Origin: an uncultured Candidatus Saccharibacteria bacterium
GTDB lineage: Bacteria > Patescibacteriota > Minisyncoccia > Phycocordibacterales > UBA918
Length of the DNA: 64,000 nucleotides
Reading direction: 5' to 3'
NCBI GenBank assembly: GCA_964469295.1
Contig: CAYXYJ010000003.1
Span: 12,595 to 76,594, forward strand
The stretch's first letter is position 1, and each line of letters starts with the position of its first letter. The notes under the pieces were generated by a model. The model had not been told where the DNA came from. It worked only from the letters and a program-made list of their open reading frames with translations, and searched no databases. This document shows, one piece after another, positions 35,237-47,209 of this stretch. A program made the position numbers and the translations under genes.

Positions 35237-35568
35237 AGCACTATTTCTAAATTATCGCCCAACTATACATGAATATAGCAAAATAGCAACCGCTCTCGTA
35301 AACGACGGTATTTTCATTACATATTCCTACAACAATAAACAACTCCTAACAAAAGCTATGTAAAACGAGCACTTTATTTTTATTAACACCAATCCATCAG
35401 TACATATTCGTCATCTAGTCGCTTGGCAGGGAATAGAGAATACGGAGTGAGGTGTCGGTGTCATTTTATACACAGCTTATACACAGTTGCAGAGTCTGAA
35501 GAAAAAATGAGGGGTACTTTTCATTCATTTTTTTTGTAACCGTTTACAGCAAATATGGAACGGGTATA
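35237..35568. promoter_or_regulatory. AT-rich rpmH-dnaA intergenic region with DnaA-box-like sites and a dnaA promoter (part of oriC region)
   Basis: Two ttatacaca sites (8/9 match to TTATCCACA) near 35470-35490. TATAAT at 35556-35561 with tttaca upstream. Confidence 0.5.
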
Positions 35569-42795: not shown

Positions 42796-43275
42796 TTACC
42801 GATTTCGTCCGTGTTGTGCAAGGGCGGTAATACCAACAGCAATCGCATCGTATTCATCGTCTTTGGCATTAGTATGAATTGTTGGAATTAAACGTTTCAC
42901 CATGGCATAGACTGCATTTTTATCACTACTGCCATACCCGGTGACAGCAACTTTTACTTCTTGTGGTCCAAATTCAAAAATATCAAGCATTGCTTTGCTG
43001 GCTTCATAAATAATGACCCCTCGCGCTTGGGCTACACCAATACCAGTGGTAATATTTTTATTAAAATAGAGTGTTTCAACCCCCAAAGCTGTGGGTGAGT
43101 ACGTATTAATAATAGAAGCAACATGAGTACCAATAACCGCAATACGGTCAGATAAAGACGCTGCCCGGTCGGTTTCGAGGCACGTGGAAAATAGCAATAC
43201 TTCCTTTCCGTTTTGGTATTCTATGACAGCAACCCCACACCGATCATATCCGGGATCAATGGCTAATACGCGCAT
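42796..43275 (-). CDS. ruvC: Crossover junction endodeoxyribonuclease RuvC
   Basis: MRVLAIDPGYDRCGVAV... with the catalytic DPG, E and D/H residues. The ORF-track N-terminal extension (MGPLGPT...) runs through a terminator hairpin and is rejected. Start placed at ATG 43273-43275. Confidence 0.85.
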   Translation of the reverse strand: MRVLAIDPGYDRCGVAVIEYQNGKEVLLFSTCLETDRAASLSDRIAVIGTHVASIINTYSPTALGVETLYFNKNITTGIGVAQARGVIIYEASKAMLDIFEFGPQEVKVAVTGYGSSDKNAVYAMVKRLIPTIHTNAKDDEYDAIAVGITALAQHGRNR

Positions 43276-43296
43276 AAAGTAAGCATACCACGGAGT

Positions 43297-43330
43297 AAAA
43301 AGCGTGGGGCCTAAAGGCCCCACGCTTTTT
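43297..43330. terminator. Hairpin aaaagcgtggggcc-taaa-ggccccacgctttt between yebC and ruvC
   Basis: A perfect 14-bp stem. Possibly a partial terminator or attenuator inside the yebC-ruvC unit. Confidence 0.55.
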
Positions 43331-43880
43331 ACTCAATCTCTTCTTCCGTGCTATCAGCAGTGGTGAAAATTTCCTGTACGTCTTCTTGTTCTTCAATCGC
43401 TTCGATTAATGAGGCCAGCTTTTCGCCATCAGCATCAGACAGTTCAAGCGGATTTTGTGGAATATACCCGTCAGCCGTTTTGGTAAAAGCCCACATCGCT
43501 GTGCCAGGTGTGCCCAAGGTGAGTCCTTGTTTGGTAAAGATGTGGCGAATTTCGGGCGATGTGCGGTTGTTATTGTCCGTGACGGCAGTAATAATCATCG
43601 CGACGCCACCGGGGCCGAAGGCTTCAAAGACCACCTCTTCGAGATTGGCGCCGCCCGCGCCGGCACCTTTGGCGACGGCGCGATCAATGTTCTCTTTGGG
43701 CATAGAATCTTTTTTGGCCCGGTCAATCACTGCAATCAGTCCTGGTGAGGTCAGGTTCCCGTTACATTTGCGCGATTCCATGGCAATCAAGGCCGCGTGT
43801 TTGCTAAATACCTTACTCTTCTGTGCATCGGTCGCCGCTTTCTTGTGTTTAATCTTTGACCATTTGTTATGTCCACTCAT
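43329..43880 (-). CDS. YebC/PmpR-family probable transcriptional regulatory protein (short variant)
   Basis: MSGHNKWSKIKHKKAATDAQKSKVF... is the YebC N-terminus. At 183 aa it appears to lack roughly 60 aa of the usual middle region. Confidence 0.75.
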   Translation of the reverse strand: MSGHNKWSKIKHKKAATDAQKSKVFSKHAALIAMESRKCNGNLTSPGLIAVIDRAKKDSMPKENIDRAVAKGAGAGGANLEEVVFEAFGPGGVAMIITAVTDNNNRTSPEIRHIFTKQGLTLGTPGTAMWAFTKTADGYIPQNPLELSDADGEKLASLIEAIEEQEDVQEIFTTADSTEEEIE

Positions 43881-43998: not shown

Positions 43999-45012
43999 TT
44001 ACTTTAGTATATTTTGTAAATGTGTGTAAGCGGTAGCACTCGCTACTCGACCGCGGGGTGTTCGTTCAATGAGGCCTTGGCGAATGAGATATGGTTCGAT
44101 GACGTCTTCGATAGTTGACTGTTCTTCGCCAGTAGCGGCGGCGATGGTATTTAGTCCCACTGGCCCACCGCCGAATTTATTAATGATGGCATCAAGGACG
44201 GATCGATCGGGTCGAGTCAGTCCGAGCGTATCAATATCAAGTAATTGAAAGGTGCGGGTAATAATTGTTTCATCAAGGTCGCCTTTTTCTAATTGCGCCA
44301 AATCCCGGCACCGTTTTAACAAATAATTGGCTGTCCGTGGGGTAGCTCGGCACCGTTTCGCAATCGTCGCCAAAATCATGGTGTTGCTCGACACTCCGAT
44401 CAAGTTGGCCGATCGAACGAGAATCTCAGTGATTTCTTCATTCGAATAAAATTCAAGTCGGAAGGTGCCACCAGAAAACCGTGAACGGAGTGGCGCGGAC
44501 AAAAGTGAAATACGAGTCGTTGCCGCCACCAAAGTAAATGGCGGGAGTTCCAATTGCACCGTGCGAGCCGATGGTCCTTTGCCAATAATGATATCAAGGA
44601 CGCCTGATTCCATGGCGGGGTAGAGCACTTCCTCGATGCTTTTTGATAGGCGATGGATTTCGTCAATGAATAATACGTCTCCAGGTGATAGGTTGGTCAA
44701 AATTGCTGCGAGATCAGCGACTCGTTCAATTGCCGGACCAGAAGTCGTTTTCATATTGGTGCCAAGGGTGCGGGCAATGAGATGGGCGAGAGTGGTTTTC
44801 CCAAGACCGGGTGGTCCATATAATAAAATGTGCTCGGCGGCGTGCCCGCGTTCTTTGGCTGCTGTCAGCAAAATACGGAGGTTTTCTTTGATTTTTTCTT
44901 GCCCGATGTATTCGTCCCAGTGTTGCGGGCGCAATGTCTGGTCGAGGTGTCCAGCGTCGTCGCGAGTAATTGGTTTTTCGGTGGCCATGGACTGTAGTAT
45001 AGCAAAAAGCAC
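43999..45012 (-). CDS. ruvB: Holliday junction DNA helicase RuvB
   Basis: LLYGPPGLGKTTLAHLIA (Walker A), FIDEIHRL (Walker B), and a C-terminal winged helix; 337 aa. Confidence 0.92.
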   Translation of the reverse strand: MLFAILQSMATEKPITRDDAGHLDQTLRPQHWDEYIGQEKIKENLRILLTAAKERGHAAEHILLYGPPGLGKTTLAHLIARTLGTNMKTTSGPAIERVADLAAILTNLSPGDVLFIDEIHRLSKSIEEVLYPAMESGVLDIIIGKGPSARTVQLELPPFTLVAATTRISLLSAPLRSRFSGGTFRLEFYSNEEITEILVRSANLIGVSSNTMILATIAKRCRATPRTANYLLKRCRDLAQLEKGDLDETIITRTFQLLDIDTLGLTRPDRSVLDAIINKFGGGPVGLNTIAAATGEEQSTIEDVIEPYLIRQGLIERTPRGRVASATAYTHLQNILK

Positions 45013-45169
45013 ATATAAATGTGGTAACTTGACAAAAAGTCCATACTATGCTAATATGGATTTATACGGTTCTCTTGTTCACAGTGTTATTGCCCTTGCA
45101 ACTCATACTGCTGATATCGGTCTATTACAGTCAAAATAAAAAACGCTCAACAAGAGCGCGATTTTTGTG

Positions 45170-45325
45170 TCTTTTCCATCGAGAAGATAACTCTCTAAGC
45201 AACGCGAATACGTTGCGAGGATTATTGGGGTTCCTCCCTTTGAGGAGGGTGACTCTGGAATTCCTTAGCGCGGTATTCACTTTCAATACGGAAGCTTGCT
45301 TAGAGAGTTATACTCTCGATCAGTC
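45170..45325. ncRNA. Candidate structured RNA element (~155 nt) closed by a 16-bp perfect helix
   Basis: ataactctctaagcaa (45187-45202) pairs perfectly with ttgcttagagagttat (45295-45310), extendable by tcgaga/tctcga. Inside are at least three local hairpins (caacg-cgaata-cgttg; cctcc-ctttg-aggagg; gtatt-cactttc-aatac). A terminator-like hairpin cgctc-aacaa-gagcg with flanking A/T runs lies at 45143-45157. The only ORF here (45048..45392) is implausible. Confidence 0.35.
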
Positions 45326-45432
45326 ACTGCGTTATTTTGTACAGAGAACAAAACGTGCGTTGACTATAGCGCACTCGTTCGTGACTGACTAGATTGACCA
45401 ACTGCAGTTTTGTAGTTGGGATTAAGTCAAGT

Positions 45433-45479
45433 AAACGACAAACGCGGACGGCCCAAAGGGCCGTCCGCGTTTGTCGTTT
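45433..45479. terminator. Terminator aaacgacaaacgcggacggccc-aaa-gggccgtccgcgtttgtcgttt
   Basis: A perfect 22-bp palindrome directly after the pilB stop. Confidence 0.8.
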
Positions 45480-47209
45480 TACACGATGTGAGAAAAAAAG
45501 TCGTCATCATGGTCATCGCTTTTTGTATCCGTCACGACGCGCCGACTTTGATTAACATCAACAACCCGTTCCAATTCGTCAAACGTCGTCAGGCCAGATA
45601 ATACTTTAATTAATCCATCTTGAAGCATGGTGGGAATATGTTGTGGCAAGGCTGCGTCAAGTATCATGTGTTCTCGTGGGTCACGAATGACAATGTCTTC
45701 CACTCGATCATCCATCGCAATAGCTTCAAATACGCCGACCCGACCAGAAAATCCAGTATGACCACACGCATCACAACCGACACTGTCGTACACCACCGTA
45801 TGACCATCTATTGTTACTGGCTCGGGGTAAGAACTCAGTGCTTTTTTTGCCATGGTAATTTCTTCGGTTGAAATTACTCGGGGTTTTTTACAGTGTTCAC
45901 AGAGAACGCGAACCAAACGTTGCCCTAACATAATATTAAGTGAACTACTAATAATACGAGGGTCAACGCCTAAATCAATTAAGCGAGGGAATCCACCGGC
46001 GGCGCTGTTGGTGTGGAGGGTAGAGAAGACAAGGTGTCCCGTTTGAGCGGCGTGAATCGCCGTTTCCGCTACTTCACGATCACGGATTTCGCCAATCATA
46101 ATGATATCGGGGTCTTGACGTAAAATCGCTCGCAAGCCTGACGCAAAAGAATAATCTGGACCGGTTTGGGTTTGTACAATACCATCAAGTTTATATTCAA
46201 CCGGGTTTTCAATCGTAATGATTTTTTTCTCACTATCATGTACCGCCCGTAAAAAGGCATACAGCGCAGTGGTTTTTCCGGAACCAGTTGGGCCGGTGGT
46301 AATAATGAGTCCGTTTGGACGTTTTAACTCTTGTTCCATTCTGGCCCGTAAAAACGGATTAAGGGCCAGTTTATCCATACTGAAACTGGCTACTCCCGGA
46401 TCAAGTAATCGCATAACGATTGATTCGCCGACAGCGCCCGGAATGATTGAACTACGTACTTCAATGGCTCGTTCGCCAAACACAAATTCAAACCGACCAT
46501 CCTGGGCTTCTTTCCGTTCGTTTAGCCGCATGCCCGACAGTAATTTCAAACGTGACATCAAGCGACCGTACAAATGATTGTCAATAGTGGCGACATCTAA
46601 AAGCACACCATCAAGACGATATCGTAAACGAATATGTTGTTCGGTTGGTTCAATATGAATATCTGAAGCACGCAACGCGAGGGCTCCGGCAAACATCAGT
46701 TCGAGAGTTTCGGAAATGCGGCGCGGACTATTAATGCGTGATACCGTATCAATAGCGGTGGCGACATCCTCGATGTTTTCCATGGTATGTGCGCGTCGCA
46801 AAATATCATCAGGATTGATATCCAATACCCCTTTTTTGCTTGCGGTGGTGGTTTTTTGGTCAGCATATCGGGCCAATCCGTGATCAATACTGGCGGTAGA
46901 GGCGATGTGGGGTAGCACGGTAAAGCCCTTTTTTTCTAGGAGCGCCAAGGCGGCTTTGGTAGCAGTATCATTCGGGCGATTAACTGCTACTGACAAAGTA
47001 TTCCGCATTAACGCAAAGGCCACCAGCCGTGATTCTTTGGCAGTTCGTTCAGGAATTTTCATGAGTGCTTCGGGATTGATGGTGACACCAAATAAATTGA
47101 CATACGGAATCCCGTACTGTGGTGCCAGGGCACGCAAATATTCTTCTTCGCCCCGTTTTCGTAAATCAGCGATGTGCGAAAGAGCGTTTGTATCATTAAA
47201 ATCTACCAT
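45479..47209 (-). CDS. Type II/IV secretion system ATPase GspE/PilB family
   Basis: N-terminal T2SSE_N-like domain, Walker A GPTGSGKTT, Asp box, Walker B, and a CxxC...CxxC tetracysteine motif (CEHCK...CDACGHTG); 576 aa. No other pil or gsp genes adjacent. Confidence 0.85.
   Translation of the reverse strand: MVDFNDTNALSHIADLRKRGEEEYLRALAPQYGIPYVNLFGVTINPEALMKIPERTAKESRLVAFALMRNTLSVAVNRPNDTATKAALALLEKKGFTVLPHIASTASIDHGLARYADQKTTTASKKGVLDINPDDILRRAHTMENIEDVATAIDTVSRINSPRRISETLELMFAGALALRASDIHIEPTEQHIRLRYRLDGVLLDVATIDNHLYGRLMSRLKLLSGMRLNERKEAQDGRFEFVFGERAIEVRSSIIPGAVGESIVMRLLDPGVASFSMDKLALNPFLRARMEQELKRPNGLIITTGPTGSGKTTALYAFLRAVHDSEKKIITIENPVEYKLDGIVQTQTGPDYSFASGLRAILRQDPDIIMIGEIRDREVAETAIHAAQTGHLVFSTLHTNSAAGGFPRLIDLGVDPRIISSSLNIMLGQRLVRVLCEHCKKPRVISTEEITMAKKALSSYPEPVTIDGHTVVYDSVGCDACGHTGFSGRVGVFEAIAMDDRVEDIVIRDPREHMILDAALPQHIPTMLQDGLIKVLSGLTTFDELERVVDVNQSRRVVTDTKSDDHDDDFFSHIV

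Follow-up and report, generated by a model that had tools for sequence, protein, structure and literature searches.

The stretch of DNA analysed here (the window; 64 000 nucleotides of contig CAYXYJ010000003.1, from an uncultured member of the Patescibacteria) carries, in the gap between ruvB and pilB, an element whose positions 45178–45320, read on the plus strand, are, judging from sequence comparison, almost certainly the core of a structured small RNA (sRNA) gene with transcription of its own, the family of which extends across Paceibacteria-type Patescibacteria. The conserved fold belongs to the plus strand only, and upstream on this strand lies a sigma-70 promoter that is close to the consensus and has an extended −10 element; the gene is locked head-to-head with ruvB and tail-to-tail with pilB. 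We lean, with modest confidence, towards an explanation of the whole in which this sRNA gene is joined by putative processing, a protein-bound role and promoter competition; the mechanistic package in itself is more tentative, possible rather than probable. A full-text literature search that included the arm sequence itself found no description of the family, which appears to be new, its kind (a lineage-specific structured small RNA gene) being already known.

The RNA family and its conserved fold

The best RuvB matches of the window are labelled Kaiserbacteria, Nomurabacteria, Zambryskibacteria, Ryanbacteria, Sungiibacteriota and Minisyncoccia (Paceibacteria-type Patescibacteria). Of the 19 closest loci (L001–L019), all but L019 have a related element directly upstream of ruvB; that of L001 is 83% identical to the window over 143 nt. 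A covariance model (CM) was built from 19 sequences, and a metagenome set of at least 120 stretches was collected with a DNA pattern for the two inner arms of the enclosing helix, P1. Among the matches listed, the CM recovers 107 of 120 metagenome stretches, plus L001–L018 and the window. The family thus comprises at least 125 related loci (at least 126 with the window), each with a single CM match of 68–137 bits, and the family-wide locus counts given below for promoter, synteny, U-run and P1 length draw on these at least 125 loci among the matches listed. The window itself scores 94.5 bits at 45180–45318 (plus strand), and in every locus the reverse strand scores some 35–85 bits below the forward one. 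No CM match was found in loci from Buchananbacteria and two other distant lineages.

A weak match of 28 bits was seen in a Paceibacterota locus whose RuvB is only 56% identical (L025, 2555–2790, minus strand). Its layout upstream of ruvB is alike, with TTGACA-17-TAGTAT, a 26-bp closing helix, internal hairpins and a U-run; because this layout is shared at only 28 bits, the family may extend beyond the range in which it was detected.

The enclosing helix, which the first-pass annotation of the window had predicted from the sequence, is real and lies where it had been placed. A repeat search returned 25-nt arms at 45178–45202 and 45296–45320 with 92% complementarity and a spacing of 93 nt, which hold a perfect 16-bp core (45187–45202/45296–45311) and 23 bp in total. 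On the 5′ side, P1 consists of an outer segment (45178–45184), a 2 × 2 internal loop and the inner 16 nt (45187–45202, AUAACUCUCUAAGCAA); its 3′ strand begins with UUGCUUAGAGAGUUAU, followed by the outer part. The pairs mapped from the consensus of the clade to which the window belongs (window clade) are 45180–45184/45314–45318 and 45187–45202/45296–45311, extendable to 45178/45320. Folded on the plus strand, the segment 45170–45330 reaches −65.1 kcal/mol (z = −6.8), a value that none of 200 shuffles equalled.

Inside P1 lies a long-range rod, P3, formed by 45207–45231 (lower helix 45207–45216, GAGGA 45217–45221 and a G·U-rich segment 45222–45231) with 45252–45277, in which GAGGA stands opposite UUCCU. 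The rod is capped by the apical hairpin P4 (45233–45248; CCUCC/GGAGG with a CUUUGA loop), the sequence of which differs among relatives, and is followed by the short hairpin P5 (45281–45294; UUUC/GGAA with a U·G pair), which adjoins the 3′ strand of P1. The junction strands in the window are 1–4 nt long. Members of other clades have an additional small hairpin, P2, after P1, which is absent from the window, and the apical loop varies across the family (UUCG, CUUG, CUUUGA and others). Of the three internal hairpins proposed earlier, comparison supports two local ones, P4 and P5, the third part of the structure being the long-range rod; the hairpin that had been placed first (CAACG...CGTTG, ~45200–45216) is in competition with P1 and the rod, and covariation lends it no support.

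Covariation was assessed mainly in 100 members less than 90% alike, in an alignment fitted to the CM. Standard pairing occupies 93.0% of the cells, compared with 79.6% in shuffled alignments and 36–52% when the 3′ partners are slid. Two-sided changes occur in 34 of 38 pairs, and none of 500 shuffles reached the observed measures. Covariation is seen in 21 of the 23 P1 pairs, and the length of P1 ranges across the family from 22 to 34 bp (median 27). MAFFT alignments, made independently of the CM, return the same helices in three sets: 38 pairs, 30 of them compensated, in the 19-sequence set; 51 pairs with 27 compensated in the window clade; and 51 with 22 compensated in another clade. The lower helix of the rod has compensatory changes (e.g. 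AU/GC at alignment columns 31/99), P4 shows two-sided changes in four of its five pairs in the window clade, and P5 covaries in other clades. The AGGA/UCCU helix of P3 is invariant, with the G·U-rich helix next to it. The metagenome set, having been selected by the inner arms, was not used to argue for conservation of the P1 sequence; in the 19 sequences derived from RuvB matches, the inner P1 pairs (alignment columns 24–30) keep the commonest pair in 14–18 sequences. The inner pairs are 79–95% conserved in this unbiased set, with compensated exceptions that include L005, L012, L016 and L018, and the outer pairs vary with compensation. A small RNA other than 6S had been among the candidates named in the first-pass annotation, which took lack of covariation as the finding that would speak against its element; the helices are in fact conserved and covarying in more than 100 relatives.

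The same helices bear on the other RNA candidate named there, a 6S-like RNA, i.e. an open-promoter mimic that sequesters the RNA polymerase holoenzyme. The size of ~140–170 nt is in range, and 6S RNA (SsrS, RF00013) is likewise a stand-alone, strongly transcribed RNA, of ~150–200 nt, with a long closing stem, a terminal stem-loop and, as here, a strong promoter. However, the strands between P1 and AGGA/UCCU, where the bubble would be, pair and covary, so that there is no large central bubble but a multi-helix junction with P5 (and P2 elsewhere). Neither the window nor 20 relatives match RF00013 or related models at E ≤ 10, there is no other Rfam similarity, and the genomic partner is ruvB rather than ygfA. 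We therefore regard a 6S-like RNA as very unlikely.

The strand of the RNA is indicated by its wobble pairs, as each G·U on one strand would read as A·C on the other. On the plus strand, G·U outnumbers A·C by 395 to 74 overall, by 207 to 14 in the P3 rod and by 68 to 7 in the window clade. Consensus folds of the same 24 window-clade sequences have 51 pairs and −44.9 kcal/mol on the plus strand versus 28 pairs and −30.0 kcal/mol on the minus strand, where only P1 and P4 are retained and the rod and P5 collapse. By eye, UUCG tetraloops are found on the plus-equivalent strand in several relatives.

These data also bear on the possibility of a minus-strand element, either a leader or attenuator of ruvB–yebC–ruvC, as the first-pass annotation had suggested, or an sRNA running from a TGCTATAGT-like site (45372–45363) to a terminator at 45159–45133. 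Such an element could draw on the conserved minus-strand −10-like sequence beyond the core and the good minus-strand terminator before ruvB, both found in the window clade, and the minus strand of 45170–45330 does fold well (−57.0 kcal/mol, z = −5.9). The loss of the rod and P5 on that strand and the A·C mismatches in place of G·U count against it. So does the layout of the relatives: outside the window clade, the only ruvB-strand promoter-like element seen (TGCTATAAT, in 43 of 79 loci of one class) sits between the element and ruvB, which puts the element outside the ruvB transcript in many relatives, and in L007 the element extends right up to the stop codon of pilB, with no room for a minus-strand promoter. 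The structure lies opposite to the ruvB strand, its own promoter is directed away from ruvB, and, contrary to what would be expected for a leader, riboswitch or attenuator, no gene follows on the strand of the RNA, pilB being convergent. A minus-strand origin is thus hardly likely.

An explanation at the level of DNA, either as a mobile element of the miniature inverted-repeat type or as two protein-binding sites in inverted orientation, would account for arms that resemble 25-bp terminal inverted repeats around ~93 bp and for the conserved inner arm sequence. It is barely conceivable, given that the element occurs only once in the window and once per locus, in each case between ruvB and pilB, and keeps this fixed syntenic position although RuvB identity drops to 63%; that its internal helices covary; and that the bias of G·U over A·C is a signature of selection on RNA. 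The arm 16-mer is likewise single-copy in the 64 kb, the sole additional match having three mismatches, which is within chance expectation. Four matches to the arm pattern in viral contigs are AT-rich, unrelated by eye and fail the CM, and a phage DNA similarity search gave no match.

At the gathering score, Rfam cmscan of the whole window returned only four tRNAs. Nothing overlapped the element in a search of 44950–45520 at E ≤ 10, and 18 relatives at the gathering score and 20 at E ≤ 10 yielded no consistent family, the weak matches being inconsistent noise; ARAGORN found no tRNA or tmRNA at the locus. The strong promoter, class-wide conservation and a closing helix that joins the ends would be typical of a universal housekeeping RNA (signal recognition particle (SRP)/4.5S RNA, 5S rRNA, RNase P RNA or tmRNA) diverged beyond the reach of the Rfam models. 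That it is one of these is extremely unlikely, as there is no sub-threshold Rfam match to any of them. The apical loop and stem are variable, unlike the apical GNAR tetraloop and the conserved symmetric and asymmetric loops of SRP domain IV, and match no SRP model. There is no RF00001 match, the closing helix is 22–34 bp long, and P5 (14–25 nt) is far smaller than the loop-E arm of 5S rRNA, an RNA of ~120 nt whose three-way junction bears two arms (helices II–III and IV–V) of ~40–50 nt; an RNase P RNA would need more than 140 nt. Hammerhead, twister and other small ribozymes were rejected on the grounds of the short junction strands, the absence of core motifs and the lack of Rfam matches. The open reading frame (ORF) across the element, of 114 aa (45048–45392), had been judged to have no plausible features and indeed has no match in Pfam, and by eye the indels in the alignments keep no reading frame.

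The promoter and the linkage to ruvB

The promoter of the RNA gene (45029–45057, plus strand) has a −35 element TTGACA (45029–45034), a 17-nt spacer and an extended −10 element TGCTAATAT (45049–45057); in a consensus scan it matches 10 of 12 consensus positions and has the TG in addition. Of 121 loci, 113 have the motif TTGACA-N16-18-TAnnnT in the 300 nt that precede the RNA on its own strand, and in 109 of these the TG is present too; none of the loci has the motif on the opposite strand, and the background is 0.029 per 300 nt. Transcription in the window would be expected to start near 45064. Between the end of the −10 element and the start of the model there are 10–219 nt (median 62), and the leader in relatives would be ~5–210 nt long, or sometimes absent.

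On the side of this promoter lie ruvB (43999–44988), yebC (43329–43880) and ruvC (42796–43323), and beyond the RNA lies the gene for a PilB/GspE-type ATPase (45479–47209), all four on the minus strand; Pfam confirmed the names that these genes had been given from the sequence alone. The gap between ruvB and pilB measures 490 bp from the ATG at 44988 to the pilB stop codon (45479–45481), or 466 bp when counted from the upstream GTG at 45012. An adjacent, divergent ruvB is found in 117 of the 118 loci with enough sequence, and a convergent pilB downstream in 106 of 111. The sole locus without an adjacent ruvB, L175, retains both RNA and promoter, with no ruvB within 1.5 kb upstream; in the place of ruvB (130–1400) are a methyltransferase ORF, which is split, and a toxin–antitoxin pair with a toxin of the RelE/ParE type, which looks like an insertion. 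Because both are kept without ruvB upstream, the RNA and its promoter form a self-contained unit.

The two genes are interlocked in different ways. In 62 of 109 loci the in-frame ATG of ruvB is part of the −35 hexamer of the RNA promoter (TTGACAT reversed being ATGTCAA). Large subclades carry, within the leader of the RNA, a perfect TGCTATAAT on the strand of ruvB, located between P1 and the promoter of the RNA gene (L006, L009, L092, L096, L101, L107, L112, L114 and others); in these, the promoters of the two genes are face to face, with start sites ~12–35 bp apart. In the window, the RNA promoter and the putative ruvB promoter are back-to-back: the ruvB start region (44986–45004, minus strand) has an extended −10-like TGCTATACT at 45004–44996, 25 bp from the RNA −35 element, followed after 7 nt by the ATG (44988–44986), which suggests a leaderless ruvB mRNA. 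The ruvB starts of L001 (TGGTAGAAT-6 nt-ATG) and L002 resemble that of the window.

Such an arrangement invites the view that the RNA gene is a cis-encoded regulator of ruvB, either through occlusion or collision at the promoters or through a 5′ leader that pairs with the 5′ untranslated region of ruvB; the core would only stabilize and terminate the transcript. The near-universal synteny, the ATG within the −35 hexamer and the loci of the L006 or L101 type, whose facing promoters would give overlapping transcripts, all speak for it. On the other hand, the back-to-back promoters and the seemingly leaderless ruvB of the window clade leave no antisense overlap, a mere stabilizer needs no rod, junction and P5 that are conserved and covary class-wide, and L175 retains the RNA in the absence of ruvB; the synteny itself might persist merely since interlocked promoters are inseparable. 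We consider purely cis-acting regulation doubtful, though it deserves more weight than any of the other alternatives discussed here.

Several relatives (L101, L102, L107, L112, L114, L123, L131 and L139) have, in the region of the 5′ untranslated region of ruvB, three spaced TGTTGATA(A/C) repeats directly after the ruvB-strand −10 element, which on the opposite strand read TTATCAACA, a DnaA box with one mismatch, and in L003 a perfect TTATCCACA follows closely after the RNA. A replication origin at 45 kb was considered and rejected: although DnaA-box-like repeats occur in the leaders of some relatives, the DnaA-box pair and GC-skew minimum of the window lie at 33–35.5 kb. That pair consists of two tandem DnaA-box-like TTATACACA sites, 11 bp apart, at 35466–35485, near the cumulative GC-skew minimum (~33000), and this region is a possible replication origin unrelated to the RNA.

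Leader, trailer and transcript ends

The leader in the window (45064–45177, plus strand) is specific to the window clade and contains GTTC-N4-GTTC (45069–45080), followed by a hairpin and a T-run. Its fold is insignificant (z = −1.3). An antiterminator in which CUCUUGUU (45071–45078) would pair with AACAAGAG (45149–45156) was rejected on the basis of this value and of the loss of the pairing, by eye, in L148 and L191. The GTTC-N4-GTTC motif lies 12–20 nt downstream of the RNA promoter, and GTTCYY is conserved there in window-clade leaders; CAGAGAAC in the trailer (45343–45350) is the complement of the leader GTTC motif. The two could form a leader–trailer pairing or be an operator common to two promoters.

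The hairpin of the leader (45143–45166; CGCTC/GAGCG, rich in G+C) is flanked by an A-run and a T-run and is terminator-like in either direction. On the minus strand, the stem (45159–45143) is followed directly by TTTTTATTTT; on the plus strand, the stem 45144–45158 is followed by CGATTTTTGT. Similar hairpins are present in those relatives of the window clade that have long leaders. The separate hairpin at ~45143–45159 that had been put forward as a possible minus-strand terminator upstream of ruvB is thus real, and its T-run is better placed on the minus strand; a minus-strand transcript that ends at the hairpin (45133–45165) is possible in the window clade.

Downstream of the core lies a trailer domain (45321–45388, plus strand), also specific to the window clade, with the closing stem CAGUCAC/GUGACUG. 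It holds CAGAGAAC and, on the minus strand, GCGCTATAGT, and the CGACTATAGCA and TTGACC motifs are conserved here in the window-clade alignment. Of 125 loci, 50 have a U-run immediately after P1, and there P1 would itself be the terminator; several other members have, by eye, separate downstream hairpin terminators. In the window, a 22-bp perfect hairpin with U-rich arms, an inverted repeat at 45433–45479 that abuts the pilB stop codon, is presumably an unusually strong bidirectional terminator that serves pilB on the minus strand and the primary transcript of the RNA on the plus strand. The structured strand would thus have a predicted promoter and a predicted terminator of its own, as expected of a stand-alone sRNA gene.

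Proposed working of the RNA and its known counterparts

In this genome, the transcript would run from ~45064 to the 45433–45479 terminator. The outer, freely covarying half of P1 would act as a processing and/or termination stem, with RNase III as the likely enzyme, because P1 spans more than two helical turns. With an outer half that varies only by compensation and flanks that vary freely, P1 is most likely a processing stem; its length (23 bp in the window, 22–34 bp in the family) reaches the ~20–22 bp or more of RNase III precursor stems. Cleavage of P1 would release the core from its leader and trailer, and the mature core would then act in trans as a stable, protein-bound RNA. The conserved positions are those of the AGGA/UCCU helix, the adjoining G·U-rich helix, the base of P5, inner P1 and the junction, with almost no unpaired ‘seed’; it is this scarcity of conserved unpaired bases that favours a protein-bound RNA over a base-pairing regulator. 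Since the promoter of the RNA directly adjoins the start and promoter of ruvB, or overlaps with them, polymerase at one promoter should exclude the other, and the strong RNA promoter would hold ruvB down.

Several points weigh against this combination of an sRNA gene, processing and promoter competition. In the window clade, the least orderly of the family, the 45143–45166 hairpin lies between the promoter and the core and could end plus-strand transcripts early. In the window clade only, a conserved extended −10-like TGCTATAGT (GCGCTATAGT in the window; minus strand, 45372–45363) lies 40–60 nt beyond the core on the ruvB strand, at the same positions in L001, L118, L134, L135, L148, L154, L156, L185 and L191, and points back through the core. 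About 18 nt beyond it, a conserved (C)TTGACC is found in the loop or stem of the next hairpin (45392–45397, plus strand, in the window), and the two fit no canonical −35/−10 layout on either strand; an antisense transcript from TGCTATAGT, or regulated read-through, may occur in this clade. The P1 sequence of L025 is unrelated to that of the family. The pattern used to collect the metagenome set demanded the inner P1 arms, which in part accounts for how little inner P1 varies in the 100-sequence alignment. The long perfect helix would equally fit a plain terminator or a site for a double-stranded RNA-binding protein, and the start site and 3′ end, processing by RNase III, the bound protein and the competition between promoters are predictions.

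A bolder proposal is that this is an abundant, class-wide ribonucleoprotein RNA tied to Holliday-junction processing, its linkage to ruvB being functional and not a frozen accident. We consider this improbable. It could take the form of a three- or four-way junction and duplex arm that mimic nucleic acid and titrate or regulate RuvAB or RuvC, or of a switch that links recombination capacity to growth state via the shared promoter region.

To our knowledge, the Patescibacteria (Candidate Phyla Radiation, CPR), with their tiny genomes, have hardly any characterized non-coding RNAs (ncRNAs) beyond the universal ones. The promoter, the covarying fold and the ruvB-adjacent position are kept under strong selection in Kaiser-, Nomura-, Zambryski-, Ryan- and Sungbacteria, among others, and retention of the RNA in genomes that shed almost everything dispensable indicates an important role. 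The RNA thus offers a concrete target for metatranscriptomics, structure probing and a search for partners, and the locus is a clear case of interlocked genes, with the start codon of a repair gene within the −35 element of the RNA-gene promoter. New orphan RNA motifs turn up regularly and, as it stands, this one is a well-supported new family rather than a new mechanism.

Among known systems, P1 resembles the RNase III stems of pre-rRNA and similar precursors in that the sequences on either side of a structured RNA pair into a near-perfect helix longer than two turns, with an outer part that changes by compensation and a leader and trailer that vary in length and sequence. It differs from them in enclosing an RNA of only ~95–125 nt that is neither rRNA nor tRNA and in having an inner half of conserved sequence, and cleavage here is a prediction. 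Y RNAs and YrlA, partners of Ro60/Rsr, also have paired ends and a long stem with a conserved segment, the rest being more variable, and the conserved stem segment of Y RNAs is a protein-binding site; unlike them, the ruvB-linked RNA has no Rfam match, no rsr seen nearby and no conserved bulged Ro-site helix. A further parallel is with orphan ncRNA classes (the raiA motif, OLE and Rfam entries of the ‘Gene; sRNA’ type), which were likewise defined by covariation, within one lineage and in a fixed neighbourhood, with function unassigned at discovery. The present family is unrelated to any of these in sequence and structure, as the lack of an Rfam match shows, and is set apart from them by its CPR hosts and by the way in which it interlocks with a repair gene at the promoter and start codon of the latter.

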